A stretch of 64,000 bases of DNA from Eledone cirrhosa (Eukaryota), in the NCBI GenBank assembly GCA_964016885.1, contig OZ024740.1, forward strand, positions 440,696,001 through 440,760,000, given 5' to 3'. The position numbers and the translations under genes were made by a program. The notes below the pieces were generated by a model. That model was given only the letters and a program-made list of their open reading frames with translations. It ran no database searches and had not been told where the DNA came from. Below, piece after piece: positions 2,145 through 63,272 of this stretch (position 1 is the first letter of the stretch; every line of letters starts with the position of its first letter).

Positions 2145-4765
2145 CACTGTTGTTATTCCTTGAATCTCAGTCATTGATGTTGGTTAACTGGAAAGTCCAT
2201 TGGAATGAATATCAAGCCACTACCTGCAGCCTCAGATATTCAGGACGTATCGGAGGGTTCTTGCTGTTTCAAGCAAGCATGCCTTTTGAAGCGTTCCAAA
2301 AAGCGTGACGGGGCCGATTTTCTTTAACCATCCTTGGAAACTTTTGGAGATAGTCCCCAGTGCGCCTATGACAATCGGGATCACTTTGACTTCATGGCAG
2401 TTCCAAATCCTTTTCACCTCCCACTTTAGGTCCTGGTATCGGTTAATTTTCTCCCTCTCCTTCTCTTGCACTCTCGTGTCGAAAGGGCAGGCCACATCCA
2501 CAATCAGACACGATCTTTTTTCTTTGTCCACAACCACCAGGTCAGGTCTATTGTGTTCTAGTTTTTTGTCCGTCTGTATCCTAAAATCCCACAGCACCTT
2601 CACCTGATTGTTCTCCATCACCGCCTCCGGCCTATGCTCATACCATTTCTCAGAGTGTGGTAAATTGTTTACTTTGCACAGGTGCCAGTGGATCACCCTG
2701 CCCATCACATCGTGTCTCCAGCCCTTATAGTGGGTCTGGGCTAGGTGTTTACACTCGGACACAATGTGAGCCACAGTCTCCTCTCTCTCTCCACAGATCC
2801 TGCACATTGGGCTAGCCTCCTCCTTGTAAATATGGTGCTTCAACCACTTCGTTTTGAGGGCCTGCTCCTGCGCAGCCATTAGCATTCCTTCTGTAGCCTT
2901 TTTGAGGTCTCCTCTTCTCAACCAGTTCCATGTCTGTGGATCTCTAAATTCAGTTTTCTCAAAGAAGGTACTATGAAGGGATTTTCCCTTAAGGCTGCTC
3001 TTCCTCCTTGATGTTATTTCCTCCTTGGACATCCCCTGGCCTACTGTCCCCTCCTTCAGTACAGTTCTGAGCATTGGCTCCTTACTATAGGTCACGTATT
3101 TGTATAGGTTGTTTTTCTCCATCTGAACACAGTCCTCTATGCTGATAAGACCTCTTCCACCCTCAGATCTCCTTAGGTAGAGTCTATCGACATCACTCCT
3201 CTTGTGGAACATGTTGTAGATAGTCAATAGCTTCCTAGTCTTCCTATCCATTTCTTTTTGTTCAGCAACATTCCATCTCAGAATTCCCGCACTGTACCTA
3301 ATAATAGACACAGCTCGGGAATTTACTGCGCTTATGGCATTTCTGCTGTTCAGATGTGACTTCAATACGCTCCTTACTCTCTGAATGTATTCAGTTCTTA
3401 ACAATTCCTTCATTTTTTTGTTCTTTATGCCATCAGCCTCCAGAACGCCCAAATACTTGTATCCTTCCTCAGAGTCAATTTCCTTTATCATCTCACCTGT
3501 TGGTATCTGGATCCCGTTACTTCTGCTCAGCCTACCCCTCTTCATCACAATGACTCCACATTTACTAATACCAAACTGCATACATATATCACTGCTGAAA
3601 ATACGGACAGTGTCAACAAGCACATCCAACTCCTTCTCACTTTTCCCGAAGAGCTTAAGATCGTCCATGAAGAGGAGGTGATTGATGGTAAGCTCTCCCT
3701 TTCCCAACTTGTATCCTGCTCTCACTTTTCGCAGCATAATGGTAAAGGGCATCAGGGCAAGGACAAACAACAGAGGGGACAGGCTATCTCCCTGGAAGAT
3801 ACCTCTCTTGATCTTCACGCTTCCCAAGGATACTCCAGTTGATGTCAACTCTGTCTCCCAGAACCCCATACTCCTGTCCAGCAACTGTCTGATGTTATCT
3901 GCCACCCTGAAGATCTCCAGGCTTTTGGTGATCCAAGAATGAGGCACCATGTCAAATGCCTTTCTGTAGTCTATCCATCCCATGGCAAGACCAGTGTGTC
4001 TCCTCCTGCAATTCCCCATCACCATCTTATCAATAAGTAACTGGTCCTTTGTACCACGTGACTTCTTTCGGCATCCTTTCTGTTCGTCCGGTAACAAGTT
4101 GTTTGTGTGGAGGTGATGGTAGATTTCCTCAGACACAATGCTCGTCAACAGTTTCCACATTACGGACAGACATGTGATAGGTCTATAGTTGGTAACATCA
4201 TTACCCTTGATTCGGTCTTTCATTATCAGAACTGTGGTACCTTTTGTCAACCACTCTGGCACCTCACCCGACACCAAGCAGTCATTGAACATGGCCGTCA
4301 GCTTCGGGTGGAGGGATGTTAAATTTTTAATCCAATACCCCTGCACACCATCTGGGCCTGGTGATTTCCAGTTGGTTAGTTTTTTGGCCTGCCCCTTAAG
4401 AGTTTCAACTGTGATACTCAAATCAGTTTGTTGGTGTGCCTGCTCACCGATCTCCCTCTGTACTGTCTCAATCCACCCTGCCTGGACATTATGTCTAACA
4501 TCCTGCTCCCATATTCCTCTCCAGAATGTTTTAGTTTGCTCCGCCCCAGGGATCAAGTCGTTGCCTCTTTCTTTCCCCTCAAGCTGTCCAAACAGCATCT
4601 TTTGGTTGTTGTCAAACATTCGGTTCTGTCTATACTGACTGACTCTGTTCTCGTATCGCCTGATTTTTGCACTCTTTGCTACAATGCGTTGCTTCAGTTC
4701 CTCTATGATAATATTTAGCTTTTTACTCCTAGTTTTGTACTTTATTTCCAGTCCACTTTTAGAAG
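2145..4765 (-). mobile_element. R4/Dong-like element, family B, copy 1, lacking its N-terminal region
   Basis: RT-RLE ORF. 3' UTR shared with the copies at 5384 and 6126. 3' end abuts (TAA)n. Confidence 0.92.
2232..4762 (-). CDS. R4/Dong-like RT-RLE polyprotein; homology extends upstream of the Met at 4619 to about 4762
   Basis: KYKTRSKKLNIIIEELKQRI, WKSPGPDG, NYRPITCLS, IDYRKAFDMVPH, GIFQGDSLSP, FMDDLKL, CRIC..ETVAHIVSEC, RHD, HNRPDLVV..IVDVACPFD. No internal stops. Confidence 0.92.
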
Positions 4766-5328
4766 TGGGAGACTGGCGGCGGTAGCGATACTGAGACAGT
4801 GGTGGTGGTGATGTCGATACCGAGGTAGTGGTGGTGGTGATGTGATAGTATTACTGTAGTGATGGTGTTGTAGTGGTGGTAGCAGTGAAGGAGTGAAGGA
4901 GTGGTGGCGGCGGTGATGGGATAGTGGTGGTAATGATGGCAGTAGTGAGCGGTGGTGGTGAAATTGCCGTTATCTGGCTGTTGTGTTTAGTGTACACAGG
5001 TGATGAGGTGGGTGGTGTATCTAGTTTCTGGTGTTGGTGAGTTTGGCTGTTCTATATAGTGTAGACAGAGGAGAGGAGGGGGGGGTCTTCTTCCATTTAT
5101 AGCCATTTTCTTTTTTGGATATACAGTGTACAATACAAAGTTGAATATTTGAATATTTGAGCCTTATAACAATATATTTTGGGTCCGAATTATTTTGGGC
5201 TCAAGCCGGGTGCTTTACGTAGCATTTGTACTAAGAGTTGTTATTTCACAAATGATTTAAATATGTTAAAAATTCAAAACTTACGGGAGCGATTTCATGA
5301 CCTCCGCCACCTCGTGCGTCTTCTTCCC
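4766..5328 (-). mobile_element. Probable 5' end (UTR plus low-complexity ORF start) of a non-LTR element fused to Dong-B copy 1
   Basis: Begins right after (TAA)n on minus. Shares TCGCTCCC(A)GTAAGT and an A-rich ATGGCT with the Tx1 5' UTR at 14861-15075. Confidence 0.4.

Positions 5329-5383
<55 letters not shown>
5329..5383. repeat. (ATT)n microsatellite
   Basis: Perfect repeats. Confidence 0.98.
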
Positions 5384-5854
5384 GTTATTCCTTGAATCTC
5401 AGTCATTGATGTTGGTTAACTGGAAAGTCCGTTGGAATGAATATCAAGCCACTACCTGCAGCCTCAGATATTCAGGACGTATCGGAGGGTTCTTGCTGTT
5501 CCCAGCAAGCATGCCTTTTGAAGCGTTCCAAAAAGCGTGAAGGGGCCTTTTTTCTTTAACCATCCCTGGAAACTTTTGGAGATAGTCCCCAGTTGGCCTA
5601 TGACAATCGGGATCACTTTGACTTCATGGCAGTTCCAAATCCTTTTTACCTCCCACTTTAGGTCCTGGTATCGGTTAATTTTCTCCCTCTCCTTCTCTTG
5701 CACTCTCGTGTCGAATGGGCAGGCCACATCCACAATCAGGAACGATCTTTTTTCTTTGTCCACAACCACCAAGTCAGGTCTATTGTGTTCCAGTTTCTTG
5801 TCCGTCTGTATCCTAAAATCCCACAGCACCTTCACCTGATCGTTCTCCATCACC
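5384..5854 (-). mobile_element. Dong-like family B copy 2, 5'-truncated (RLE plus 3' UTR)
   Basis: ORF 5464-5853 is nearly identical to the C-terminus of 2232-4619. (TAA)n on both sides. Confidence 0.92.
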
Positions 5855-6101: not shown

Positions 6102-6125
6102 ATTATTATTATTATTATTATTATT

Positions 6126-6374
6126 CCTTGAATCTCAGTCATTGATGTTAGTTAACTGGAAAGTCCGTTGGAATGAATACCAAGCCACTACCTGCAGCCT
6201 CAGTTATTCAGGACGTATCGGAGGGTTCTTGCTGTTCCCAGCAAGCATGCCTTTTGAAGCGTTCCAAAAAGCGTGAAGGGGCCGATTTTCTTTAACCATC
6301 CCTGGAAACATTTGGAGATAGTCCCCAGTGCGCCTATGACAATCGGGATCACTTTGACTTCATGGCAGTTCCAA

Positions 6375-6375
<1 letters not shown>
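6126..6375 (-). mobile_element. Dong-like family B copy 3, 5'-truncated
   Basis: IWNCHEVKVIPIVIGALG...YVLNN plus the 3' UTR. (ATT)n at 6102-6125 and 6375-6430. Confidence 0.9.
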
Positions 6376-6430
<55 letters not shown>

Positions 6431-8223
6431 CAATAACAACAGCAACAACAAAAATAACAGCGGTAAGGTCGAGAACGACAATAACAATGACAATAACAAC
6501 AGCCACAACAACAATAATAGTAGGAACAGTATCAACAAAAACAACAATAATAACAATAGCCACAATAACAGTAACAACAGCAACAGTATCAACGAAAACA
6601 ACAACAACAACAACTGTACCAACGAAAACAACAACAATGACACCGATCCCTGTAATAGCGATATCAGCACCACCAGTAAGACCAGTAGCGGCAGCAATAG
6701 TGGTGCTGCTGAAAAAGGGACCACTTCTTTTGCAGGTGTTGCCCGAAATATCGAGACAGTGTTAGTCACAGAGGAGGAGATGGCAGTCGCAAGGGCCATG
6801 GTGACAAGAAGCGCAAATAGAGTTTCCCTGAAACCTGCACCCGATTTTTTAAGGACCAGCAGCTACGGACGGTGACTTACCGCACCGTAAGCAAAATCTC
6901 ACATCGAGTGGAGAGAGCCACGGAGGCTCAAATCCAAAAGGCCTTGGGGTGCGTCTGGGCACGCAAAACCCACATCACCCGAGGCAGAAAGTACGCCACA
7001 GTAGACGTACTTTTCGCCACCCCCAGGAAGCAAAGTCTCACTCTTTGGAAACCCTAAAGAGTGAGGAGATAGTCTTGGTGCTCTCCTACTGCGGGCAGAA
7101 AATTGTGAGGGTCAAAGTGACCCAGGTCCCACCCGACATGCGCATACCTTGGCTGGCCGCGTCTGTCCTTGCAGGAATCGAGAACAGGGCGTCCATGCTG
7201 CAAGTAGAAAAAATAGAGAGAGAGAACTGGTCAGGTATAGGCATGCAAATGCTTATACAAACTGACCAGGAATGTATCGACGCTATCCCCGATATCATAG
7301 ACATCGAGGAAGGACTCCAACTCCCTATAAGTGTAGAAGGAAGACGGCCAAAATGTTATCTCTGTGGGTCGAAGTGTCACCTCAGGGCCTTTTGCCCGCA
7401 GAAGACAGCGAAGAAGGCCCCTCTCCTTCCAATACCTGGTCCGCTGCTACCAAGAGCAGGGCAGGTAACACACGAAGAAGCCTCTTCCACGATGAGTAGG
7501 AGGGCAACGTCCGTAGCACCCGTACCAAGGCCACGGACAACTAAAGCAACATCATCAGTGGCGGCAACACCAATAGCTACATTTGAAGTAGCTACACCAG
7601 CAACACAATTGCCGAAGAGGGCTCCACTACCACCACCAACAGCCGTGGAGCACATACCCCTCCCAGACGCCACAGAATCCGACATGGAGTTTGAGACGGG
7701 AGTGAAGTGGCAAACGGTCTGCCACAAAAAAGAAAAAAGAAAAAAAACCTTAGATTCACCCTCCAAAATCAAAGGCATACAAAGAGGGGTAAAAGCAGCA
7801 AGGAAACTTGCAGCAACACCACCACCATCACCACCACAAACACCAACAATGCAAACACAACAAGACACACACACCAAACAGCAACAAGAGGAAAACAGCA
7901 ACAAAATCACCCTCCCGCCAAAAAGTACACAGCCATAAACATGGCAAAAAGAGAACTCATACAATATATAAAGCAGCACACAGACATCACATAAAAAAAA
8001 CTACTACACCCCACCAACACCAAGAACTCTCCCTACAAACATAAGCATCATCGGAATCTCAATAGAACAGTACAAACCTTTAAAACAAAAATCCCCAACG
8101 CAGTTGGAGACTTTAGAGGGTCGGTTACCAAGAGGATATACACTGACATCCTCTTGGAAACACCCATGACCAGCGAAAGGGACGGTTCTACTGTCCCTTC
8201 ACCACACGAACAAGGTAAGTGAC
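6431..8223 (+). pseudogene. Tx1-A ORF1 (gag-like), frameshifted
   Basis: Asn-rich N-terminus, SFAGVA, EGRRPKCYLCGSKCHLRAFCP zinc knuckle, Pro/Thr-rich tail. Homologous to the ORF at 15068. Confidence 0.85.
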
Positions 8224-8254
8224 CCTTTCTCACTTGCCCCGTTTCTCATCCAAC

Positions 8255-10715
8255 ATGGCTGTACTCAGAATAGGCAGTATAAATGCACGTGGCCTGGGGT
8301 CATCTTGGAAGCAGGGACACTTGCTCAATGACCTCGGGTCACTAAACATAGATGTGGTGGCCATCAGTGAAACCAGAATCTCCGAAGCACAAGCCTTCTC
8401 ACCGATCTTCGGCGGCTACGATGTATACGCATCTCCCAGCCGTCCAGGATCGGGGGGAGGGGTTGCCGTCCGTTTTCGGAGAGGCTTGAATCTCGCGATA
8501 CGGGCCATCTTCCTGGACCCAGAAGGTAAGTCGGTGGTGCTGGACGTGACCGGCAGCGAAGGCAATGTTTTCAGGCTAGTAGCCGTCTACGCCTCAACAG
8601 GGGCAGGACGGCCAGATTTCTTCAGACGTCTAGAGATCTTTCTTGGAACGTCCCGCTCTTCAGTGTTAGTGGGCGACTGGAACGGTATCTTGGATTCACG
8701 CTGGGATCGTGTGGGGCTAGTGGATAGGGAAGGAGGGTGCAAGAGCCTGACTAACCTGCTCAGACGTTTTGAACTGTCTGACAGGTATCGACTGGATCAC
8801 CCAAATGTGCCAATGTGGACATGGACAAACCGCATCGGGTCATCCAGATCGTAACTCGATAGGGTATTCTGCAGAGAACTAGATAAGGCTAGTATAAGTT
8901 GTCCACAATTTAAAATAGTCGACTACACAGACCACAAATTTGTGATCTGTGAGACGAACATAGACAGACTTCATAGACAAGGGCCTGGTTACTGGAATCT
9001 GAACGCGTCTTTCCCGGCGCGCAACGCCTACAGAGACCGGATTAGCGTATTAGTTAAGCGGGCGTTGACAGGAACGGTCGTCAACAACAGGTGGTGGTTC
9101 GCCCTGAAAAGGGCAATTAAAGTAGAGTCGATTAGGTTTAACAAAGGAGTAGTGATAGAGGAAAATAGAGTAGAGGGAGAGCTAGTCAGAAAGCTAGAAG
9201 AGGCGTTTAGGACAGGCATCGCAACCGACGTGCTTGCTGCGAGATTGGCACTCGACCAATTCTTCAACGCAAAACACGAAGGCTGCGTTGTCAGAGCTAG
9301 AGCGTGTGCTCTGAAACACGAGGGGACAAAAGCCGTCCAATGGGCCCGGGTGGCAGAGGCGCGACGTAGCAACAAAGCCACAATTCGGTCTTTGTCTGAT
9401 CAAAACGGGTGCGTGATACTCGAACCCGAGCGGATGTGTGAAGCTTTTCAGTAGCACTTTGCTGAACTGTTCGGGAGCGGCGGCGGCCCGGATCGGGGCA
9501 TGGACTTCAGTGCATAACTCAACGGACTGCCTCGGCTCTCGACGACCGCAGCACAGTGTTGCGAAAAGCCAATAACAGCCGGTGAAATACGGGAAGCGAT
9601 GGCTAACTGCACGAGGAGTAAATCGCCAGGTTTAGATGGTCTGCCCTAAGGGCATTATGCATTTATGCCAGACTTGTTCTGTGACCTCTTGGCAGACGTC
9701 TACTGCAACTGGCAGCAGAACGGGAGCATTCCCAGTTTTGTGAGCCGGGGAGCAGTGGCGCTGCTGAGAAAAAACCCGAACAAGGGGGATGTTATCGATA
9801 ATTTCAGGCCCATAACCCTGCTAAACGCAGAGTTCAAGATTTTGGCCAAGGTGTTAGCAACGAGGTTGGCGCTTGTCGACAAGGGTCTGGTGGGAGAGGC
9901 GCAGACATGCGCCATTCCGGACAGATCCTTACACGACAACCTCCACCTCATGCGATACATCATAGAGAGGGTGGTTAAGGAACCTGGCAAGGGTGGGGCC
10001 CTGATCAACTTGGATCAATCCAAAGCATTCGATAGGGTCGACCATCGGTACCTGGCGGCGGTTTCTCGAGGCAGCCGGTTTCGGGCTCGTTTTCAGGAGT
10101 TGGATCGCAGCAATGTACAGCGACATCTGCTCAGTTGTGAGGGTGAACGGTCACCTGTCGCAGCCGTTCAGCATCATGCGCTCAGTCCGCCAGCGTTGTC
10201 CCCTCTCGTCCCTCTTGTACGTATTGGCTCTCGAGCCGTTACTGCACAAACTGGGGGCGATGAGGGGCGTCCCACGCGAACTAGGATGCGGGAAATCCGA
10301 GTCGGCTTACGCTGACGACGTCACCGTGGTGGTGTCGAGCACCAAACACGTCCAGATGCTGGGCGCCGCTCTCAAGGAATACGAAGCAGTGACAGGAGCA
10401 AAGATAAACCAGGAAGCGTCGGTGGGCTTGCAGTTCGGCAGCTGGATAGGCAAGTCCATGCCCTCCGACAGCGTCGTGGGGCGTTGGACAGACGGACCGG
10501 TTAAATTGCTCGGGCTCTGGTTCGGACCGGACCTCCAGATGGAGAAAAACTTGAACGAGGTGACGAGCAGGGTGGCCTCCCTCACCCAGAAATGGGCTGA
10601 GAGGAAGCTGTCCCTGAAAGGCCGGGCGGAGGTGGCGAATGCGTACATCGCATCCGTCATCTGCTACCGTCTCACCGTCATCACTTGCTCCAGCCCAACT
10701 CTCACCAAAATGGAG
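8255..10715 (+). pseudogene. Tx1-A ORF2, 5' part (APE endonuclease plus RT), several stops and frameshifts
   Basis: INARGL, ISETR, VAVYA, VGDWNG, TDHK; SPGLDGLP, NFRPITLLN, LDQSKAFDRVDH, VRQRCPLS, YADD. Confidence 0.92.
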
Positions 10716-13451
10716 TTTGCATTCTCCAGTCAATGGATTCCACATGTCCAGTTCTGTCACTTCCGCTTCCGGATGTCGTGACCAATATCTCATCCTTTTC
10801 CCTCTATCTTTCCTTCTCTCTCTCACTCTTTTTCTCTATCAACTCCTCTTTTCTTGCCTTCTCTGATTCTCTCCAACACAAACATATCTAACCTACATAT
10901 CTACCTATCTTTCTAGTTACCTCTCTCTCACTCACCCCTATCTCTCTCTATCTCCCTCTCTTTCTCTTTCTATCTATCTGTCGCCCTCTCTATCTCTCTC
11001 TCTATCTCCCACTCTTTCTCCCTCTCTTTTTCGTACCTTTCCTACACAAACTCACCTCTCCTCTGCCTATCTATGGGGCCTATCTATGGGGCCTATCGGT
11101 GGGGCCCTGATCAACTTGGATCAGTCTAAGGCTTCCCATAGGGTTAACTATCGTTACCTGGATGCGGTGCTCGAGGCGGCAGGCTTCGGACCCGTGTTTA
11201 AGGGCTGGATTGTTGCAATGCACAGCAGCAACATCTGCTCAAGGATCAAGGTGAACGGTTACCTCTCGGAGATGTTCCATATTACGCGATCCATCCGACA
11301 GGGATGCCCTCTCTCCTCCCTTCTGTACGTACTCACTCTCGAGCCACTACTGCGGAAGTTGGAGCTATTGCAGGGCATCCCTTTGGAATCGGGACTGCGA
11401 AAAGCACCTCGCAAATCGGGGAGATCGGCACCTTACTGGAGGAATACGAAAGGTTCACAGGAGCGAAGATGAACCGGGACAAATCCGTCGGTTTGCAACT
11501 CGGAACGTGGAGGCAAACCGATGCCTTCCGATGACATCGTCGGACGCTGGACGGAAGGACCGGTAAAGCTGTTCGGGGTCTGGTTTGGTCCGGATCGCAA
11601 GGTGGAGAAGAATTGGAACGAGGTGACGGCCAAGGTGTTTGCGCTCACCCAGAAGTGGGCCGAGTGCAAACTATCCTTGAAAGGTCGAGCGGAGGTGGCG
11701 AACACTTTTATTGCGTCCGTCATCTACTACCGCTTGACCGTCGTGCCTTGTCCAGCCAAAACGCTCACCAAAATGGAGTGCGCTCTTCCAATTCCTTTGG
11801 AAGAAACGGGCTCCTTTGGTGAGAAGATCCATCTGCTGCCAACATCCTTCAAACGGGTGGCTGGGGATGCCGTGGTTGACGATACGCAAACACGCGCTCA
11901 GGCTGCGGCACCCCCACGTATTCCTCACCAGACAACCGGTGTGGGGCCCCGTTCGTGAGGCGAGCCTTCCCACAACTCGTCTCGCTGACCGAGCTGCAGT
12001 CATGGGTCAAGCAAAGACCGAGGAAAATGGGCGACTGGCACAGCGAATGTGCTCAGGCGCTCACAGTCCTCTGGCAAACGGACCCGGCGATCAGTGGAGA
12101 CTCCACTTCGACATTCTATAGAGGGTTGGTCAGCAGCAAGTGCGACGACACGCTCGGAGAAACTCTAGGCGTAGAGGAGGACGAACTGGCCAGTTTGTTC
12201 GGTAGGACCTTCCGCCCGGGACCAATGGACAACTTCCAAAAGTCCCTGGCCTGGCGTGCTACCGAGGAACTCTACCTGTTCGAGACAAGCTCTACAGACA
12301 CGGGCGCCGAGTAGGGACCCTTCGAAAAAGATCTGTCCGAGATGCGTGCGCGACGAGGAAACCGTCGCACACGCATTTGTACACTGCCCGGGCGTTACCG
12401 ACCTGTGGGGCTATGTAGAACGACTATTGTCGCGGGTGGGACAAATCCAGTTGACCACCGAGTCCAATGTCATGATCATACTGCTACCCTCCTTCAAAAT
12501 CGAGGAAGAGGCTGTTTTCCTATGTGTTATGGCTATGGTGAAAGAGTTTATATGGTGGGCGAGGTTAAAAGGGCTGAGGTCAGACACCTTTCTCTCTGGC
12601 AAGCAACTGATTCGTTTTTTCAAATATCATTTTGGAAGAAGAATCAGGATGGAGAGAGAGGTGCTGTACCCCAGCAAATTTTATAAAAGGTGGGTGAATG
12701 TGGCAAAGATGGCCCGAGTGGTTGGGCCTTCTCTCTATATAAGCCTGTAGGTTGAGGAAAAAGAGGAAGAGAGGAAGGTTGTACATTTTTTCGGGGTGTG
12801 TACAACTCCTGTGTAATACCTCCCCCCCCCTCTCCCTATTGGGCATATCAATTGTTATTTGTTATTTTATTAATAGTTTTATTTTCATATACCTGTATGT
12901 AAACTCCCCATTTATATTTGTCCCCTTCTTTTGTGCCCTTGTGGCTAATAAAGAAATTTATCTAGTTACCTCTCTCTCACTCACCCCCTATCTCTCTCTA
13001 TCTCCCTCTCTTTCTCTCTCTATCTATCTGTCGCCCTCTCTATCTCTATCTCTATCTCCCACTCTTTCTCCCTCTCTTTTTCGTACCTTTCCTACACAAA
13101 CTCACCTCTCCTCTGCCTATCTATCAATCTATCTGTCTAGTTATCACCCTTTCTCCCTATCTCACCCCATATCTCTCTTCCTCTCCCTCTCTATTGATCG
13201 TGCTCTCTCCACCTTTCCCCCCACACACATACATATACACAGTTTGATGTCTCAACAAATTATTTTTTGTTCTTGTTGCTTTCCCTTTTCTCTTCCCTTT
13301 TTTGGGGAATTTTTGTTTTATGAATTTTTTGAATTTATTTTTACACGTTTGTCTTGTTATAACCTCTTTACACCGCCAAAACCCACTTTGTATCGCCCTG
13401 TGCCGTCTTTAATGTTTTTCTTCATGTTAGTCATTGTGACCAATAAAGAAA
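10716..13451 (+). mobile_element. Non-coding insertion with a CT-rich body and Tx1-type 3' end (about 690 bp once the inner insertion and one repeat copy are removed)
   Basis: Ends ...TCATTGTGACCAATAAAGAAA. Flanked by a 136-bp direct repeat at 10580-10715 and 13452-13587. Confidence 0.8.
11096..12956 (+). mobile_element. Tx1-like element B, 5'-truncated (RT C-terminal half to 3' end), nested
   Basis: GGALINLDQSKA, IRQGCPLS, CPRC..ETVAHAFVHC. Ends CCCTTGTGGCTAATAAAGAAA. Flanked by a 163/164-bp direct repeat at 10912-11074 and 12961-13124. Confidence 0.9.
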
Positions 13452-14546
13452 CCTCACCCAGAAATGGGCCGAGAGGAAGCTGTCCCTGAAAGGCCGGGCG
13501 GAGGTGGCGAATGCGTACATCGCATCCGTCATCTGCTACCGCCTCACCGTCGTCCCTTGCTCCAGCCTAACTCTCACCAAAATGGAGCGCCTCCTCTTCC
13601 GCTTTTTGTGGAAGGAACGCGCTCCCATTGTCAGACGATCCATCTGCTGTCAACGCCCGTTGCGTGGAGGAGTCGGCATGCCATGGCTGATGATGCGCAA
13701 ACATGCGCTGAGGCTGCGACATCTCTGGTGCTTCCTTGATGGTGAACAGGTGTGGTCGCCGTTCGCCAGGCACGTTTTCCCACAGCTCGTCTCCTTGATG
13801 GAGCTGCAGTCCTGGGTCAGAAAAAAACCGAGGGATAGCGCTTGGAAACTGGAATGTCTCCAGGCGCTCACTGCCCTCTGCCAGTTGGGCGCCAGTATCG
13901 GTGGAACATCCACCTCGGCGTTCTATAGAGGACTAGTGGAGGGGAAGAGCGACGACATTCTCGGAGAGATCCTGGGCGTCGAAGAAGATCAGCTGTTTGC
14001 TCTCTTCCGGAGAACTTTCAGCCCACGGCCTATGGATAATTTCCAAAAATCCCTGGCCTGTCAGTGCTACCGGGGAGCGCTGCCGGTTCGAGATAAGCTC
14101 TACAGGCACGGAAGTGCCGTCAGCCGAGCCTGTCCGAGATGCGCGCAAAGCGACGAAACCCTCGTGCACGCACTCGTTCAATGCCCGAGCATTGCTGACT
14201 TGTGGAGCTATGTCGAACAGTTGCTGTCGCGTGTAGGACTGATCCTTTGTCGACTGAGTCCATTGTGCAAATGGTCTCGCTGTCTTCCTTCGAGGAGGAA
14301 GGGCAGGCGGTTTTCATCTGCATGGTGGCCATGGCGAAAGAGATTGTGTGGTGGACAAGGTTAAAAGGGTTAAAGACAAACACTTTCCTCTTCGGCGAAT
14401 CCCTAGTTAACTTTTTCAAGTTTCACTTGAAGAGGAAAATCAAGGTGGAGAGGCAAGTGCTGCCTTCTAGCAAGTTTGTTGAAAGGGGGGTGAATGTAGC
14501 GAGAATGGTCCGAGTGAAGGGGACCACTCTGAATATACGTCTGTAG
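13452..14546 (+). pseudogene. Tx1-A ORF2, 3' part (C-terminal zinc-finger region)
   Basis: Resumes the 10113-10715 reading frame. GGVGMP, CPRCAQSDETLVHALVQC. Confidence 0.88.
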
Positions 14547-15067
14547 TTTGAGAAATGGAAAAATTGAGATAGGGCGCTTGCCCTGGTGGTCAGGGTGGCC
14601 GTGGTCTTTCGTGTGGTTTTCGCCACGAGTAACCCTCGGAGGTTTCCCCCCTAATGGGGAATTTTTCATTGTTTCAATTTTCATTGTTATTGTTTATATA
14701 TATATATGTTTCTATGTCCTTTTTTTTCTTTTCTTATATAAATAATAAAAATATTTACACGCACAAAACCCACATCGTACCGTCCTGTGCCGTCTATAAT
14801 GTTGTTCGTGATGTCAGCCCTTGTGGCCAATAAAGAAATCATTATTATTATTATTATTATTGGTCTCAGTGGACGTATTTTGCTCGCTCCCAGTAAGTCG
14901 CTTTATTTGCCTGTTAAAATTATTTGTTGTTAAATATTTCTTGTTGTGTAAGGGTTATAAGCCCTTAGACTTTGCCCTGTGAAGCGGAAAGTATAATATT
15001 TGGGCCTTTTGGCCCAAATATTTGAATTTCTTTTACATGTTAAAACATTTACGGAGAAAAAAAAAAC

Positions 15068-17032
15068 ATGGCTGAGCCACGCCCCCCAGCGATATGTCGT
15101 GGAAGTTGAGAGGAGCGCTACAGCGAAATTAACACAAATTGATAACACAAACACCACCACAAACAATGTAAACAAAGACACCAATGATACCAATGAGAAC
15201 TCTAATTTTGGAAAAAATGACAGTAACAGCGACAACGAAAATACAGATAGCAAAAAAAAAAATAACAAATACAACAACATCAACACCACTAACATGAAAA
15301 CAAATAGCGACAACACCAACAGCAACAATACCAACTGCACCGAGAACAACGGTGGCAACAAAGACAACAATGATAACAGCGACAGTTCTAACAACAGCAC
15401 CAACAAGAACAACGACAACAACACCCCCAACGAAAACAAGAAGAACACTTTCGCTGCTGCAGCAGCAAAAAAGAGGCCATGCTTCAACATGGACCTCTCC
15501 AACAAAGATGAAAAGTTGGCCCAGGCATGGAAGCTCATCAAGCAAGAGCAAACCTGGGCCAACTTAACTGTCCCGGTAGAAGCTATTGAGGCAGTGGAGC
15601 GCAGAACGGTGCATTATAGATGCATCTCAGCACAAACCAAAAGGGCAGCTTTAATCCCACAAGAAAATGTCGAAGTTGCGCTAAGGTGCCTCAGAGAAAA
15701 CACCGAATACATAGAGAAGGGCACCATTTCCGAGACAGTACTGCACCATTTCGTTGTTGTTGAAGTCAGAAGCCCTCGCTATGAAATACGCTATGACTCC
15801 TTGCAAAACCAGAAAGGTCATAATGTACCCTCCCACGTGGGAAAAAGAACGGCCCGTCTTCGCATTCCCAGAATCCCACCAGGACTTGACATGTGGTGGC
15901 TTCTGGGATGTGTGATTGTGGAGGGGACGGATACCGTCCCTATAGAAGTGACCAGAACGGCCAGAGAGGACTGGTCCGGGGTTGACCTGGAGATCCTTCT
16001 CCAGAACAGGCCCGAGAATGTGAAGACAATCCCAGACCATATCCGACTTCAGAATGGGACTGTCATTCACATTATGACCGAAGGCAAAAGGCCGCAGTGT
16101 TTTGTTTGTGGGGAAAAAACCCATTTGCGAGCCTTCTGCCCTCAACTGCTGAAAGAGGCAAGGGGTCGAAAGGCTCCACTGCTGCCGACTCCGGGGCGAG
16201 GAACACAACCAACACCAGCAACGGCAAAACCACCAACAACAACACCAATAGAAAGACCACCACCAACATTGACCACCCAGGGGGGAAACGAGGAAAGCTG
16301 TCAAATTCCCTCTCCCCCCAAAAATACACACACCAATAAAACCATAAACATACATACAGACACACTTACAGACACAGACCCCTCATCTACCAGTAGTGAA
16401 GATGAGGGAAAACCAAAATCCCCCAAAATACAAAAAGGAAACACAAAAAGAAAAAAAAAACTCAACAAAGCACAAAATCACCCACAATAAAAAATGCAGA
16501 CACCACCCACGCAAACATCTCTCCAATGACACCAACATCAACACCACCGTCACCATCACCAGAATCCCCCAAACGCAAACAACCTAAACAGACGCAAGAA
16601 CAAATATACACACAAACATCTGAAACCACAGACACCGCACTCACAACAAACACAGATACAACCGAAACAACACCACCAAAACAATCACCACCACAGCCAC
16701 GCAAACAAATAAAATCATACCAACAAAACATACACAACTTCGTGCTCGTCAGGAGGGCCAACAAGGAACTGATGGCCCTCGTAGCACGAAGTGGAAATAT
16801 ACAAAAAGAGGGGGACATTTTTAAATCGACCACATTTCGCGTGCCGGAAGATTTGGTTCTGGTGCGAATGTCGCTCGATATATTCAAAGAAATACGAGAC
16901 AGCTTTCCTCGGGACGTGGGAACACCGAACGTAAAACCCACTTCAAGACTTTTAAAGAGGTTCCCAAAAGAAACCCCACCAACTATGGAGGTCGAACAAC
17001 CCGACCTTCACAAGAGCCCGGAAGGTAAGTAA
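15068..17032 (+). pseudogene. Tx1-C ORF1 (gag-like, CCHC), frameshifted
   Basis: Asn-rich N-terminus, TFAAAAAKK, EGKRPQCFVCGEKTHLRAFCP. Continues in the 16526-17032 ORF ending PEGK*. Confidence 0.85.
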
Positions 17033-19826
17033 GCCTTCCTCTCTCTCTCTTTTTAACCTGCCAACATGGCCGTACTAAGAGTAGGATGTTTAAATGTTCG
17101 AGGCCTGGGATCGTCCTGGAAGCAGGGTCACCTGCTCAACGACCTCAGGTCTATAGAAATGGATGTAATTGCCGTAAGCGAGACCAGGATTTCCGACACG
17201 CTCGCACTAGCCCCCATTTTCAACGACTATCAGATATTTGCATCTGTTAGCCGGCCGGGAATGGGAGGCGGGGTGGTAGTGCTGTTTAGGAAAGGCCTGG
17301 ATCTCGAGGTAAGGTCGATCTTCCAGGACCCGGACGGGGAGTTGGTGGTCCTGGACGTGAACAATAACGAAGGTGGTGCCTTTCGACTGGTGGCCGTCTA
17401 TGCTCCTACTGGGGCAGGACGGCGGGACCCCTTTAGACGCCTGGAAGCCTTTCTGGGTACGTCTCGCCCTTTACTGTTAGTGGGGGACTGGAACGGCATC
17501 TTAGACGCCCGCTGGGACTGTGTGGGAGTATTCGATAGGAGCGGGGGGTGCAAAAGCCACAGGAAACTGATCAGCCAGTTCCAACTGTCTGACAGGTACC
17601 GACTAGATTTCCCTAAGGCGCCAGTGTGGACCTGGGCTAACCGCATAGAGTCATCTAGATCGTATATAGACAGAAATAGTGTAAGCTGTCCACGTTTTGA
17701 AACGGTCGCCTATTCAGATCACAAGTTTGTGATCTGTATGGTCGACCTAGATAAGACGCGTAGGTTAGGACCTGGTTGCTGGAAGCTAAACATGTCATTT
17801 CCGGCACGTAAGGCTTACAGGGACCAGGTCAACAATTTAGTTAAGAAAAAGTTGACAGGGGGAGTCGTCAACAATAGGTGGTGGGGGCTCTCAAAAGAGA
17901 GATTAGAGTAATGTCGATAGAGTTTAGCAAAGAAGTAGCGTTAGAGGAAAATAGAAAGGAGGGGAAGTTGGTAGATAAGTTAGACGAGGCTATTGGTAGT
18001 GGCATTGCAACTGACGTGCTAGCGGCGAGAATAGCATTAGATCATTTCTTCAATGCGAAACACGAAGGTTGCATTGTCAGAGCTATGGCGCGTGGTCTGA
18101 GAAAGGAGGGAACCAAATCTGTTCGATGGGTCCGCGTGGCAGAGGCGCAGCATGGTAATAAAACCACGATTCGGTCTTTGACGGACCGAGACGGGAACGA
18201 GCTGAGCGACTCCGAGCGGATGTGTGAGGCCTTTCGCCAACATTTTGCTCGGTTGTTCGGGGGAAGTGGCGGGTCAGAGATGGTGGCGGACTTCAGTCCC
18301 TACCTCGATGGCTTGTCACAACTCTCGACGGCTGACGCTGGGCGCTGCGAAAGGCCAATTACTTCAGCCGAGATTCGAGATGCCCTTGTCGGCTGCATGA
18401 GGCGAAAGTCACCCGGTTTGGATGGTCTGCCCTACGAGCTTTACGTAAATATGCCAGACTTGTTCTCCAATCTCCTCGAAGCCCTCTACTGCAACTGGCA
18501 GCAAAACGGGAGTATTCCGAGTTCTGTGAGCCGGGGCGTAGTGACGCTGATAAGGAAAGACGAGAACAAGAGGAACACATTAGACAATTTCAGGCCCATA
18601 ACACTGCTCAACACAGAGTTTAAGATTTTGGCCAGGGTGTTAGCGAAGAGGTTGGCGCTTGTCGTCGGGGATTTGGTTGGGGAGGCGCAAACTTGCGCAA
18701 TCCCAACCTCCACCTAATGCGATACATCATAGAGAGAGTTGGGTGTAAACCTGGCTTCGGTGGGGCTCTGATCAATTTAGATCAATCGAAAGCATTCGAT
18801 AGGGTCGACCATCGGTACCTGGAGGTTGTCCTCAAGGCGGCTGGCTTCGGCGCCGTCTTCAGAAGCTGGATCGCTGCAATACACAGCGGCACCTGCTCGA
18901 TGGTCAAAATTAATGGCCACCTCTCGGAACCGTTTCAGGTCTCCCGATAGGTCCGTCAAGGGTGCCCTCTCTCCTCCCTTCTGTACGTATTGACTCTCGA
19001 GCCTTTACTGCGGAAGCTGGAGCTGTTGCAGGGCATCCCGCTCGAACTGGGACGCGGAATGGCTGTGTCGGCTTATGCGGACATCACCTTGATGGTCTCA
19101 GACACCTCAGAAATCGAGGTGGTCGGCAACTTATTGGAGGAATATGAAAGGTTGACGGGAGCAAAACTTAACCCGGAAAAGGTAGTTGGCTTGCAACTGC
19201 GCACCTGGAGAGGCAAGTCCATGCCGTCCAACAGCGTCATTATACACTGGGCGGACGGACCGGTAAAGTTGCTAGGGGTTTGGTTCGGGCCAGACCTCCA
19301 GGTGGATATGAATTGTGACGAGGTGACGGGCAGGGTAGCCAGTCTCACACAGAAATGGGCTGGGATGAAGCTATCACTAAAAGATCAGGCGGAGGTGGCG
19401 AACGCGTACATCGCATCCGTCATCTACTACCTTCTGACCGTCGTCCCTTGCCCCCGTTCGCGCCTCGCCATCTTGGAGTAGCTCCTCTTCAAATTTTTGT
19501 GGAGGGGTCAGTTTCCGCTGGTGAGGCGGTCCATCTGCTGCCAGCACCCTCTACGTGGAAGGCTGGGCATGCCGTGGCTAATGATGCGCAGGCATGCGCT
19601 GAGGCTGCGGCATCTCAAGATATTCTGCCTAAACGGTGAACAGGTGTGGTCGCCGTTTGTCAGACGGGCCTTTCCGCAGCTCGTTTCTTTGACTGAGTTG
19701 CAGTCCTGGGTCAAGAAGAGACCGAGACTGGGTGACTGGCATCTGGGATGTTGCCAGGCACTCACTGCCCTCTACCAGGAGGGCAATGCGGTCAGTGGAA
19801 CTTCCTCTCTCGAGTTCTATAGAGGA

Positions 19827-20825
19827 CTAGCAGTAAAGCCCGGCGTTGCTCGGGGTCGCTCAGTAGCTGTGTTAAAGTTACAATGTTAAGTTTCTTTCTT
19901 GGCTTAAAAACTGTAGTGTCTACTGTGCAGATTGCATGTGGTGTTTTTGATTAATATTCCCTCAACCAACAATATGCCTTATGAAGTTAAGAAAACATAA
20001 CGATAACCCGAATGTTATAACAAAAGAGGATGCTGGGGATAGAAACTGCACTGGTTATTTATTAACAAAGATCGAAAATGTAAACACTGCAACGCAGAGA
20101 AAAACATTAGCGTAACCAAATTATCAGTTATGTCTGTCTGCACGCCTATATCACCTCTCTGCACGACTGTCTGTCTGCACGCCTATATCACCTCTCTGCA
20201 CGACTGTCTGTCTGCACGCCTATATCACCTCTCTGCACGACTGTCTGTCTGCACGCCTATATCACCTCTCTGCACGACTATCTGTCTGCACGCGTATATC
20301 ACCTCTCTGCACGACTGTCTGTCTGCACGACTGTCTGTCTGCACGACTGTCTGTCTGCACGCCTAACGACGAAATATTTGCTTGTTTTACGTAGTCTTTA
20401 AATAGACTTGTTTTCAAGTAAAAATATTGTTTTAAAATGCTTTTAAATGGAAATGAAGCAAAACGGAAGCTTAGTGTTCGAACTGATGAATTTTGCAGGT
20501 CAATATTTTGCTGGCTTGACAACTGTTCGTGTATTGTGTTAATGTCATTTTAAACGCTGAGAAAGCCAGCGTAATTTTTTACGTAAGACGCTCAATGTAA
20601 ACAGAACAAAGGGAAATAACTGATAACTTACGCTCAAAAATCGATACATTATATTCGATTTCGTCACATAGGGTGGGTCAATTTGAAATTTTTTTTTCCG
20701 ATGTCTTCGCTAGGGCTCAATGTACAAGTATAGCAATTTCGGTGCAATTCCGTGAGAGATTCTAAGAGGAGATGTGTGCCAAAAATCGATAGACAGACAG
20801 ACAACCACAGTTTTATATATATAGA
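19827..20825 (-). mobile_element. Non-autonomous Helitron, 999 bp
   Basis: On minus: 5'-TC(TATATATA), 3' hairpin CCCGAGCAACGCCGGG, terminal CTAG. Inserted between A and T with no TSD; removal restores the Tx1 frame (RGLVVGK). Confidence 0.88.
20131..20365. repeat. 37-bp tandem repeat inside the Helitron (5 copies plus partials)
   Basis: Unit TGTCTGTCTGCACGCCTATATCACCTCTCTGCACGAC. Confidence 0.95.
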
Positions 20826-21692
20826 TTAGTGGTGGGCAAGTGCGACGATGCACTCGAAGAGGCTTTGGGAGTCATCGAAGTCGAACTAACCAGTCTGTAC
20901 CGGAGGACTTTCGAGCCGGGGACGATGGACAATTTCCAAAAATCCCTCGGTTCGAGATAAACTCTACAGGCACGGAAGTGCTGTCAGACGGACCTGCCCG
21001 AGATGCGCGCAGAGCGACGAAACCGTTCTGCACGCCCTCGTCCAGTGTCCGTGCATTACTGACTTGTGGAGTTATGTTGAACAGCTGTTGTCGCGTGTAG
21101 AACGGATCCGGCTATCGGCCGAGTCCATAGTGAAGATCGACCCGCCGCCTTCTTTTGGCCAGGAAGGGCAGGCAATTTTCCTCTGTCTGGTGGCAGTAGC
21201 GAAAGAGGTTGTATGGTGGACGAGGTTGAAAGGACTGAAGACAGACACTTTTTCTCTTCGGCCAATCCCTCATCAACCTTTTCAAGTTTCACTTGGAAAG
21301 GAAGGTGAGGGTGGAGAGAGAAGTGCTGCTCCCCAGAACATTTGCTGAAAGGTGGGTGAATGTGGCGAGAATGGCCCGTGTGAGTGGGCCTACTCTTGTC
21401 ATGCGGCTGTAGGTAGTTAAATTTGAGGAGGAGAGGGGTGCCCTTCCAGAGTGCTCTCGAAGCGTCGTGTCGTTCAGGACTCGTGGGGTACCTGAGCGAA
21501 CCCTAGGTGGTCATCCCCCCTATTGGGGAATTTTTTCTTGTTGTAATTTTCTTGTTACTTTCTTGTTACTTTGTTATTGTTACTTTGTTATTGTTATTCA
21601 TATTGTTTACTCGATTTTTCTGTAAAACCCCACTGTCCCAGTCTTTTGCATTGTCCTCTATATGTCGGCCCTTGTGGCCAATAAATGAAATC

Positions 21693-46172: not shown

Positions 46173-47727
46173 ATATTTTTAATAGATTTACAGAGTATAA
46201 AATCTTGGCTTGTTTCAAAGTTATTTTGTTACTATTACAACTACTTCCTGTAGAAAAAAAAATGTAAAACATGTTCAGAAAACTTTAAACTTGAAATTTA
46301 TAAATCAAAACAATGAAAAGGTAAAATCTCAAATAGTCTCCAAGATATGGTATTTTATGAGCGAAAGGCTTTATACTCACCCTCTACCTTGGAAAAATGG
46401 CATTTTATTTTATTTTATTTTATTTTATTTTTCAAAGAAAAGTTATCGTCTGCTATATCGTTACTGATATCTACTTCAATGCTTGTTTGCTGCTAAAATA
46501 ATAATTCTTTATCCTTATATTGTGAGATTAAAGTGGTTTCTTTTTTTATCTTATTTGTTTTTATGCAGTTGTATTCAACTAAATTATTTTGTAAGCGTTC
46601 ACTCAATGTCAAGTTGTAGTCAAAACACTCCACGGTGACAGAGTGTTCCCGCTGATTGCAATGCCAGCTTAAACTATGTAAAGTTATGCTGACGGGGACA
46701 ACGCTAGTTAAATACTGCGATTTCTATCTATGGAACCTTTTATCTAAATACCGAGACTCTACTAATTCGGCCGTGAATTTGTCACCATATTTGGGGCAGT
46801 GGAGTACATTTGATTCTTTGTCAGTAAGATAGAACACTTTCTTTTTTTCAAATTGTATTTGAAAAAAATTAGCAGAGAAATATAAAAAAAAAGAAAAGGA
46901 AATTTTGCAAATGCTGCGAAATTTACAGACAATTGTGCAACATTAGGATATTCAATCGACAATGGTAAGATGTAAATCAGCATCTTCTAGTTTCCTGTGG
47001 AGCTGTTTACTCATGTACTTAGACATTGCAATTAATTTTCTCCTCCCACAAAAATAACAAATTCTCTTTTCAACTTTTAATCCAAAGTTATTTTGTTCTG
47101 TTGTCTGTTACACGTTTATTTCCCAAAATGTATTTGTTCTATATTGTAAAGATTTGTCACCTAATGACATGATGCTCCAAAATTTCACCTGTAACAAATT
47201 TCACAGATTTTATGTAAGAAATGTTCCCAAGACTGCAAAAGACATTCTGCAAAATATGAATTCGTATGAGATCCAAATTCACGGAATAACAATTAAATGT
47301 GTTGCTTTGTAATAGTTATCGCATAATTTTTACTCTTATTAATGCTTTCCATGAATAATAATGAGTGTAAACCAATCAAAATCTAGTTTTAGGAATATAT
47401 AAAAAGAAATAACGCTGGAAAATAATGTCCTCAAGGACCACTGTAATAAAACATTGTATGCAGAAATATTCAACTCTTCACCTTGTAGCAAGTTTCAACA
47501 CAAATATTGTTCGTATTAAATCGAAGGTAATATAAATATTTTAATTTTAATCCATGTGAATTCCAGTGTTCAATATCAGCAGCTCGTTGTAGTTGCTTTC
47601 TAAGGCACTATGTGGGATTCCAGGAACATAGGAAATTCACTGTTTTGAATTGCTATTTAATATGCTAAACCATAATATATGTATTGATATATATATAGTT
47701 ATGTAATAAACAACATAAGATAATTAT

Positions 47728-47785
47728 TTCATTTACCAGTGGTTTCTTGAAAGCAGATATATCTGTTTTCAGTCGTCAGAATGAA
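47728..47785 (-). ncRNA. Candidate type I hammerhead ribozyme (left arm)
   Basis: TTCATT-CTGACGA-C TGAAA..TTTCA A-GAA-ACC ACT GGT-A-AATGAA. 6-bp stem I, GUA cleavage triplet, non-canonical 10.1-11.1 pair. Confidence 0.65.
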
Positions 47786-47860
47786 TAAAACATGGTGTGT
47801 GTTTTTTTTTATTAAATCTGGATTTGAAAACAAAATATTTAATAAAAACACCATGTTTTA

Positions 47861-47918
47861 TTCATTCTGACGACTGCAAACAGATATGTTTGCTTTCAAG
47901 AAACCACTGGTAAATGAA
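47861..47918 (+). ncRNA. Candidate type I hammerhead ribozyme (right arm)
   Basis: TTCATT CTGACGA ... GAA ACCACTGGT A AATGAA. Confidence 0.6.
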
Positions 47919-48050
47919 ATAATTATCTTATGTTGTTTATTACATAACTAATAAGTTTTGTAGCCTACATAGAGCACTCTTTTTTCCTGTATCTTTCCGA
48001 CGGAATTACTTCATTTACACACACACACATATATATAGGAAAAGAGTCAG

Positions 48051-52841: not shown

Positions 52842-52855
52842 ATATATATATACAT

Positions 52856-53262
52856 GGTGGCTGCCAACTCGTTTTCGAGTACGGCCACTACTTTATATCC
52901 ATGTAGGAGAACCCCTACCGATGCGCTGAATAAGTGTGATTTTTTAGTTCAGCCAGCGACTTGAAAACTCTGGTACAAACACTACACTCGTGACAATTAT
53001 TGACACATAGTGCTGGGCCCATGGTACCATGTAATGACAAGTGCAGAGAGATCTCCAGATAGAAAACAATGCCTATGCCGTGAAGCTTTCATAGTGAGCA
53101 AAGGCACTGCACAAAGCCAGTCCCACTCTCTTAACCAAGATGATATTTACCAAAAAGAAGAACAAGTTAACATCATTGGATACCATCAGGGTTGCAGGTG
53201 TTATATCAGAGTTTTCCTTCTCCTAGAATTCTGCCTTGACAAAGGCTAAGGGGTCATCTCTC
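52856..53262 (-). mobile_element. RTE-derived non-autonomous element, 5'-truncated copy
   Basis: Near-identical to 58397-58800. Confidence 0.8.
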
Positions 53263-53288
53263 ATACATACATACATACATACATACAT

Positions 53289-53532
53289 GATGGCTGCAGA
53301 CTCTGCTAAGAGTATTGCAATCGCTTGTCAGTATGCAGAAAATGGTGCACTTTTAGGCTACGGCCGGCAGCCACACGAACTTTTAACATAATCTGAACAA
53401 GCAATGCTTGTGCTTTGAAGGTTTTTTTTAAGTGGGGGAAGGCTTTGCACTCGACCAATCCCACTCATTGAGCATCGAAAATACTACCTGAAAAGGCGAA
53501 CTGGTCAACATCATTGGATGCTTCCTAAGTCG
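53289..53532 (-). mobile_element. Second, related RTE-derived non-autonomous family (fragment), (ATGT)n on both sides
   Basis: Shares ATCCAATGATGTTGAC, GAGTGGGA.TGG, GCAC..GCATTGCTT and the terminal GCAGCCA.C-(ATGT)n with the 58397 element. Confidence 0.7.
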
Positions 53533-53628
53533 CATACATACATACATACATACATACATACATACATACATACATACATACATACATACATACATACATA
53601 CATACATACATACATACATACATACATA
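53533..53628. repeat. (CATA)n microsatellite
   Basis: Perfect repeats. Further tracts at 53263-53288, 54075-54150, 58377-58396, 59001-59063 and 59819-59834. Confidence 0.98.
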
Positions 53629-54074
53629 AAAACTGCCACCAAATTAAAGCACAACCGGCCTGATATTGTAGTTTGGGACCACACATTGAAAACGTGTTCT
53701 GTTGTGGAGATCAGCTGCCCACTTGATGTAAACGTTGTCAGAAAAATACAGGAGAAGGAGGACATCTACGGACCATTGATGAGGAGTTTACAAATCCAGT
53801 ATCCAAGATACACCTTTAGCTTCATACCCATCATTATTGGTGCTACGGGTTATATACCAACCCGCTTGGACCAAAGTATGACTGAACTTGGATTTGCGGA
53901 CAAAAAGCGCAGCTCCCTAATTCATAGTCTACAAATGGCTGCGATAGCTGGCACCTTCGAAATTTGCAAAACATTCTTGCGATTCAAGGGATGACAATTT
54001 CTTTTCTTTTACAACCTTGCCACCAGGAAGGTGGCCGGTCAAAAAAATATACTCAAAATTAAGAGAAAGAGAAA
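53626..54074 (+). mobile_element. Dong-like family C, 5'-truncated copy in (ACAT)n
   Basis: IKTATKLKHNRPDIVVWD...RFKG, near-identical to 57926-58376. (ACAT)n on both sides. Confidence 0.92.
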
Positions 54075-54121
54075 ACATACATACATACATACATACATAC
54101 ATACATACATACATACATACA

Positions 54122-54150
<29 letters not shown>

Positions 54151-54153
<3 letters not shown>

Positions 54154-58376: not shown

Positions 58377-58396
58377 ACATACATACATACATACAT

Positions 58397-59000: not shown

Positions 59001-59063
59001 CATACATACATACATACATACATACATACATACATACATACATACATACATACATACATACAT

Positions 59064-59944: not shown

Positions 59945-60026
59945 GCTGTGGTGGCCGAGTGGTTAAGGCGTTGGACTTGAAATCCAATGGGTGTTACCCG
60001 CGCATGTTCGAATCCTACCCGCAGCG
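59945..60026 (+). tRNA. tRNA-Ser(TGA), possibly a pseudogene
   Basis: Acceptor GCTGTGG/CCGCAGC-G, anticodon arm TTGGA-CT TGA AA-TCCAA, long variable arm, GTTCGAATC, T-run at 60029-60036. Two mismatches in the T-stem. Confidence 0.88.
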
Positions 60027-60119
60027 ACTTTTTTTTATTATTATTTACAAATGAGATAACTTTTTAACTCAAATCATTCATCTTCCAACATTGAGAACGG
60101 AAAAGTGAACTGTTGTTAG

Positions 60120-63200: not shown

Positions 63201-63272
63201 GATGTGTTGGTGTAAATGGTAGCACAGTGGTCCGGATAACCAAAGATGTGGGTTCGACTCCCATGTACGTCA
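63201..63272 (+). tRNA. tRNA-like sequence, apparent anticodon GGA, short variable loop (pseudo-tRNA or SINE head)
   Basis: Acceptor GATGTGT/GTACGTC-A, D arm GTGT/GCAC, anticodon arm TGGT-CCGGATA-ACCA, T arm GTGGG-TTCGACT-CCCAT. T5 run shortly downstream. Confidence 0.6.

Follow-up and report, generated by a model that had tools for sequence, protein, structure and literature searches.

Two nested inserts in the genome of Eledone cirrhosa, both ending in a Tx1-type 3' terminus, are flanked by direct repeats of 136 and 163/164 bp, and on balance these repeats are probably true target-site duplications, produced by TPRT with a distant second nick. Taken singly, target duplication is the best reading of each repeat, held with good confidence for the inner one and with somewhat less for the outer. 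The locus was analysed within a window of 64,000 nucleotides (contig OZ024740.1 of assembly GCA_964016885.1, positions 440,696,001 to 440,760,000 of the forward strand). It is real and unusual, and likely represents a new case of a known phenomenon, not a new rule. Its parts are as follows, in window coordinates.

6431 to 10715, plus strand: Tx1-A, 5' part; begins inside ORF1 after (ATT)18; ORF2 (APE, RT) from about 8255, decayed
10580 to 10715, plus strand: outer repeat, left copy, 136 bp; four of the five differences between the copies are assigned here by homolog comparison
10708 to 10715, plus strand: probable microhomology of 8 bp where the 5' end of the outer insert meets the target, judged from an X4 contig that begins at 10708, not 10686
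10716 to 10911, plus strand: insert N, first part; a moderately repeated head, then CT-rich near-unique DNA
10912 to 11074, plus strand: inner repeat, left copy, 163 bp, CT-rich, with TATC-like sites at both ends
11075 to 11095, plus strand: 21 additional nucleotides at the 5' junction of Tx1-B, with the final target bases present twice and linked by GGG
11096 to 12956, plus strand: Tx1-B; 5'-truncated ORF2 (RT end, zf-RVT) and 3' UTR ending AATAAAGAAA; 6 frameshifts, 0 stops
12957 to 12960, plus strand: TTTA after Tx1-B, the start of a TT(TATC)-type end merging with the target
12961 to 13124, plus strand: inner repeat, right copy, 164 bp
13125 to 13451, plus strand: insert N, second part; CT-rich low-copy DNA, then a Tx1-type 3' UTR (13287-13451) ending AATAAAGAAA
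13452 to 13587, plus strand: outer repeat, right copy, 136 bp, from local alignment
13588 to 14838, plus strand: Tx1-A, 3' part; remaining ORF2 (zf-RVT), stop near 14547, 3' UTR ending AATAAAGAAA
14839 to 14861, plus strand: TC(ATT)7 between Tx1-A and Tx1-C; its 23 bp are the upper limit on duplication by the younger element
14862 to 21690, plus strand: Tx1-C, near full length, the in-window control, with no long flanking duplication

The first 22 kb of the window consist of LINEs nested in an ATT microsatellite. The elements considered here are non-LTR retrotransposons of the L1/Tx1 group, with an N-terminal APE, an RT and a C-terminal zf-RVT domain. Pfam recognises Exo_endo_phos in Tx1-C and RVT_1 and zf-RVT in Tx1-A, while the homolog P0026 matches L1 ORF2p with an E value of 1e-50 and R2 with one of 4e-22, its closest solved structure being human L1 ORF2p. 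A protein of Argonauta hians (65% identity) is a named relative. The label Tx1 is provisional, taken from the sequence-only reading together with domain and target features and not from an RT phylogeny. The window contains 6 occurrences of the terminal motif AATAAAGAAA, where 0.21 would be expected; an occurrence at 48750 has no upstream 3' UTR and was discarded as chance. ATT tracts follow four of the six Tx1 3' ends in the window (83, 6099, 14838 and 21690), indicating a preference for microsatellites. The six 3' ends fold into a weak 6-pair stem (-2.8 kcal/mol), which was not used as evidence. Scans for the 3'-terminus pattern returned 0 loci in viral contigs, 56 in metagenome contigs and 1 in prokaryote genomes, none of these 57 encoding ORF2, and their one DNA match (L055, 44 bp) was too weak for use. 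Protein-led locus scans confirmed 0 of 31 and 0 of 3 candidates. The close homolog P0007, labelled Herbaspirillum sp. in a metagenome-assembled genome, is likely misassigned host DNA.

Other repeats surround the locus. Four Dong/R4-like copies (a family name that we presume) lie on the minus strand between 130 and 6374, in one ATT/TAA tract; they are about 96% alike and have different truncation points. On the same strand, a Tx1-like 5' UTR with the start of ORF1 (4760-5328) is fused to a 5'-truncated Dong/R4-like LINE (2145-4760) of the same orientation. This Tx1 lacks its remaining parts, its orientation in the ATT tract is opposite to that of Tx1-A and Tx1-C, and the fused pair may be a chimera formed by template switching. 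Another cluster of LINEs, at 52842-59590, is nested in a (CATA)n microsatellite and holds copies in both orientations that are 95-97% alike. Three further long repeats, one of 283 bp (5366-5648 and 6102-6384) and two of 421 and 471 bp (within 52842-58800), were rejected as long duplications, being element ends with different truncation points. Elsewhere, a 15.7-kb degenerate (CAA)-rich array, whose ORF spacing suggests higher-order repeats of 3596 bp, is followed by a 7.3-kb satellite with a 19-bp unit (together 22875-45843). A tRNA-like sequence, Ser-type by eye, is found at 59945-60030. Two long structures made of imperfect inverted repeats, which may be MITEs or foldback elements, lie at 47700-47980 and 63242-63730.

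The outer repeat lies in ORF2 of Tx1-A. Its copies (10580-10715 and 13452-13587) align locally over 136 bp without a gap, with five substitutions (10598, 10670, 10680, 10683 and 10696), and the alignment ends precisely at both repeat borders. Homology of ORF2 to P0004 reaches residue 593 at 10715 and restarts at residue 548 at 13450: the frame breaks at 10715 and restarts 45 codons back at 13452, ORF2 is collinear across the insert, and the overlap is exactly the repeat. The break and resumption that the sequence-only reading had described are thus borne out, as are its length and substitution counts. Divergence amounts to 1.8% per copy (0.6-4.3%). The AATAAAGAAA copy that closes the outer insert stops at 13451, directly adjoining the right copy. 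Homologous ORF2s carry the repeated segment once, in a comparison made among homologs and not among orthologous alleles. At the other end of the insert, the start of the X4 contig at 10708 and not at 10686 suggests that the head of insert N has 8 bases in common with the target, a microhomology, although an error branch would look alike. A search for a second-nick motif at the outer site found none.

Without the inner element, insert N is a non-coding sequence of 686 bp, of which the 3' end is a Tx1-type 3' UTR of 165 bp. In the public sequencing run X4, the depth of its CT-rich body is 17-54 against about 15 for single-copy contigs, i.e., roughly 1-4x, while the head and tail bins reach 414 and 2838 against the same single-copy level. 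An Rfam scan of the insert gave nothing above threshold (3 chance rows). A SINE was considered and rejected, given a head with no Rfam match to a small RNA and a body at about 1-4x single-copy depth; insert N is a low-copy chimera and not a SINE family. Its head carries two CTTCCG motifs and one CCAAT (10753-10790), which we take to be ETS-type and CCAAT promoter boxes. A promoter here, if present, could account for the transcription of N.

Could the outer repeat instead reflect two separate copies? The segment 13452-14838 would then be an independent, 5'-truncated A-family copy behind N, 6431-10715 would have lost its own 3' end, and the 136-bp overlap would be due to chance. We consider this unlikely. 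The 96% identity of the outer repeat is not decisive, because independent copies in the window are themselves 96-97% alike, differing at 3 of 83 positions (Tx1-D) or 8-9 of 242-245 (Dong-like), that is by 3-4%. Tandem insertions are frequent both within this cluster and among the reads, the orphan Tx1 piece at 4760-5328 shows that broken 5' parts occur here, and the assignment of four of the five differences to the left copy (p 0.375) also fits two copies. Against this, both outer copies carry Ser (10689/13561) where Pro is found in Tx1-B, in Tx1-C and in all 12 database homologs that cover the site (12 of 19 homologous proteins were assessed there, 7 were not). Both also carry a Cys where the same 12 homologs have Tyr (9), Ile (2) or Cys (1). 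Such shared changes are expected if one decayed copy was duplicated; a shared Leu-to-Met change was not counted because Tx1-B has it too. The two halves of Tx1-A are equally decayed: changes affect 11 of 115 invariant residues in one and 16 of 151 in the other (Fisher p 0.84). The corresponding share is 0-5% among 8 intact proteins and 16% for the protein from Argonauta hians. Moreover, the end of N carries no ATT tract, unlike the Tx1 3' ends at 83, 6099, 14838 and 21690, and is therefore unlike a tandem insertion behind N. Two independent breakpoints would also have to fall within 136 bp of a 7-kb element. The shared Ser, the equal decay and the missing tract favour one duplicated element over two copies, as judged from sequence comparison; the Ser itself could be a subfamily trait, the comparison covering the 12 homologs, Tx1-B and Tx1-C.

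The inner repeat (10912-11074 and 12961-13124) measures 163/164 bp and shows 2 substitutions and 1 indel, an extra C in a C run, in agreement with the earlier description. Its local alignment has a score of 314, whereas 200 shuffles reach no more than 85 and the comparison with the remaining CT-rich insert gives 91, which rejects chance similarity of CT-rich DNA. Divergence is 0.6% per copy (95% interval 0.07-2.2%). The lower divergence of the inner repeat had been taken to support the order of nesting; the point estimate is indeed lower, but the confidence intervals overlap widely and the argument is weak. In X4 the inner repeat has a depth of 17 (part of its bin was skipped), while LINE bins stand at about 2e5. 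It is near-single-copy DNA, and its two copies are therefore not two copies of one family.

The inner duplication is also found in reads. Contigs of 4 of the 9 listed public sequencing runs were compared over 9900-14850 with a k=31 graph of the window, in which contig ends at 10967 and between 13094 and 13095 are predicted only with the inner duplication. Run X4 contains a 260-base contig starting at 10708, which by its length ends at 10967 (0 differences over the 226 letters shown), and runs X4 and X5, from one sample, contain a contig spanning 13095-13417 with 0 differences. These ends fit the duplication model and not the empty-site model, so that an assembly error as the source of the inner duplication is rejected. 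Since X4 and X5 are one sample, which may be the source of the assembly, they exclude assembly error without showing a second individual. The check covers the inner duplication only; joints of the outer insert are unusable because other family copies produce such joints too.

Tx1-B, the element within the inner repeat, is 70-76% identical to Tx1-A and belongs to a different subfamily. Its terminal AATAAAGAAA ends at 12956 and is followed by TTTA and then by the right copy of the repeat. The claim that both inserts lack a tail holds for N, whose end has no tract, but not strictly for Tx1-B, where TTTA and the next bases read TT-TATC-TA. Another Tx1-B-type copy in the reads runs on into TATC repeats (X7 joint 12964 to 11671; one start point). 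Two other B-family 5' junctions directly follow CTAT, one of them with 9 extra bases; these are 2 rows of listings that gave 15 out of 913 joints and 24 out of 4938 loose ends. The family thus likely targets (TATC)n. Within the locus, Tx1-B is preceded by CTATCTAT and 21 further bases, likely templated, in which the end of the target is repeated twice; a closer CTATCTAT site at 10970 was passed over.

The decay of Tx1-B sits uneasily with its position. It shows changes at 38 of 279 invariant residues and 6 frameshifts against 3 in Tx1-A and Tx1-C together (p 0.022, or 0.20 with stops counted). From these sequence counts Tx1-B, necessarily the youngest part, looks more decayed than the 0.6% per copy of the inner repeat implies. 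The conflict could be explained by trans copying of a template that had already decayed, or by conversion or homogenisation between the repeats at a later time.

With near-unique DNA in the inner repeat, the two-copy explanation does not apply there and recombination between two insertions alone does. Two same-family elements would have inserted close to each other on separate alleles or copies, with an ordinary short duplication at each site, and recombination within the element would then have doubled the DNA between them. This pseudo-duplication appears rather improbable. It could draw on the TATC-like sites at both inner junctions, on the very high copy number of Tx1-B (summed read depth about 2e5 versus 15 for single-copy DNA) and on the small divergence of the inner repeat, which could be allelic; a similar model has been proposed, in the available text of PMC5488345, for 111-450 bp repeats around HERV-K. 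Yet it requires that near-single-copy DNA was hit twice, at points 163 bp apart, and that the rare element N inserted twice to give the outer repeat, and it keeps the age conflict, as Tx1-B must still postdate N.

Target-site duplication accommodates both repeats best: they abut both ends of their inserts, as the sequence-only reading had proposed, and the 3' end of each insert is the Tx1 terminus. The right-hand copies begin at this conserved terminus or within 4 nt of it, and the 21 extra bases stand at the inner 5' side. From the features seen directly (the repeats, the junction sequences, the low copy number of N and the inner duplication in reads), we infer every step of the following mechanism. 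A bottom-strand nick would prime reverse transcription at the 3' terminus, and the top strand would be nicked, or provide a primer, 136 or 163 bp downstream. The staggered duplex would likely be unwound and then filled by host repair. In the first event, the non-coding 686-bp RNA N would have been copied in trans into ORF2 of Tx1-A from a first nick between 10579 and 10580, its 5' end being joined at 10715 via the probable 8-bp microhomology. N would thereby have delivered CT-rich DNA with imperfect TATC repeats. Priming of Tx1-B could then have taken place at the TATC-like site between 10911 and 10912, and joining at 11074, just behind CTATCTAT. There, the 3' end of the top strand may have slipped twice between cDNA and target to give the 21 templated bases. 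The length of the duplication would be set by a usable second nick or priming site in an imperfect target and not by a fixed ruler. The far site of Tx1-B matches the apparent 5' junction motif of its family, which points to sequence and not to nucleosome spacing. Both long events lie off perfect microsatellite and involve templates unable to code. As a tentative and rather doubtful extension, cephalopod Tx1 elements might routinely duplicate more than 100 bp in the germline, off perfect microsatellites or with foreign RNA, via a distant, sequence-directed second nick; such duplications would have gone unnoticed because simple repeats harbour most copies and TSD searches extend to about 30 bp at most.

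Tx1-C provides a control for any fixed spacing. The first 24 bases of Tx1-C and the 24 bases beyond its downstream tract each occur once, and a degenerate ATT tract alone follows the element. If Tx1-A were the younger of the two, a long duplication would set the 5' end of Tx1-C before Tx1-A; if Tx1-C were the younger, it would set the 3' UTR of Tx1-A behind Tx1-C. Both arrangements are absent, and unless the ATT tract has since contracted, the duplication made by the younger element was likely no longer than 23 bp. ORF2 of Tx1-C itself contains a 1-kb non-coding insert (19831-20826) with a 37-bp internal tandem array and an AT-run end, which we presume to resemble a non-autonomous Helentron-type element.

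The proposal that in cephalopod Tx1 the second-strand cut routinely falls at a distance of roughly one nucleosome wrap (135-165 bp) is accordingly very unlikely as a lineage-wide rule: with at most 23 bp at Tx1-A/Tx1-C, a fixed spacing of 135-165 bp fails for some insertions. In its favour, the two non-microsatellite insertions in the window (2/2) have repeats of 136 and 163 bp, near each other and near 147 bp, and R9 has a fixed duplication of 126 bp (as cited in PMC9977147). Against it, the inner cut follows a sequence motif, CTAT, and the inserts come from different subfamilies; the two events are nested, so that their local context is not independent, and the window was chosen for this feature. 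A set length of the R9 type is not seen here either, given repeats of 136 and 163 bp and an upper limit of 23 bp for the more recent of Tx1-A and Tx1-C. Long L1 duplications, for their part, span tens of bases to kilobases in the accessible part of PMC5223499. Repair purely at the DNA level, in which a break with long staggered ends is filled by copying other loci without reverse transcription, is highly improbable: templated extra bases and probable microhomology at 5' junctions are also marks of end joining, and both inserts are without a long tail and non-coding or dead, but both end exactly at the conserved 3' terminus, which DNA copying has no cause to do twice.

R9 of Adineta vaga, with its 126-bp duplication (as cited in the available text of PMC9977147 and PMC4838377), had been put forward as the notable systematic exception. 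This does not hold, since further precedents are found in Dualen-4b_cRei (PMC9977147) and in human L1, an APE element (PMC5223499), as far as the available parts of these sources go. R9 resembles the present case in the size of its duplication and differs in being an R2-group element with an RLE endonuclease, a single rDNA site and a fixed length. Dualen-4b_cRei of Chlamydomonas offers natural LINE insertions with long, variable flanking duplications, which exceed 50 bp in over half of insertions and have a median of 900 bp; it has both APE and RLE endonucleases and was seen de novo (PMC9977147, accessible text). For human L1, duplications of more than 100 bp are reported in up to 10% of events in HeLa cells and in 57-91% in NER-deficient cells, and tailless inserts at atypical sites with large duplications are on record (PMC5223499, in the part available). 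The APE endonuclease, the duplications above 100 bp, some tailless inserts at atypical sites and the proposed distant second nick are all shared with the locus described here, whereas the L1 cases are cultured-cell events ranging from 5 bp to kilobases and ours are two inherited, aged and nested events. The host also influences duplication length (PMC4245944, available text).

The closest systems by element type are the microsatellite Tx1 families Kibi, in (TC)n, Koshi, in (TTC)n, and the crocodilian families in (TTCC)n/(TTTC)n (PMC4494074). According to the available part of that source, they likewise have ORF1 and an APE-RT-zf-RVT ORF2, cluster in simple repeats and possess a conserved 3' end that mobilises non-coding RNAs. 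They differ in their duplications of about 10-16 bp; the targets here are (ATT)n and likely (TATC)n. At HERV-K (HML-2) sites, repeats of 111 and 250 bp similarly flank inherited insertions now and then, and recombination is left open as their origin, but HERV-K is an integrase-based LTR element (PMC5488345, in part). L1-Tx1 elements have recently been active in O. vulgaris, with 13 families and 421 insertions in the accessible text of PMC13282606. A literature search for long duplications by Tx1 or by cephalopod LINEs found none, in a coverage thin for subscription journals and Repbase reports that makes this weak evidence of novelty.

Of all the steps in LINE integration, the cutting of the second strand is understood least. 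The present two events, both at a single locus, offer a lead and do not establish a rule. Long duplications that are inherited and stem from an APE-only element would constitute a natural, countable read-out of the position of the second nick, and such a read-out would separate a sequence-directed nick from a nucleosome ruler and from a chance host nick. If common, these insertions would be an uncounted source of 100-200 bp duplications in cephalopods, missed by standard screens such as the TSD screen limited to 5-30 bp that is described in the available text of PMC2912911.
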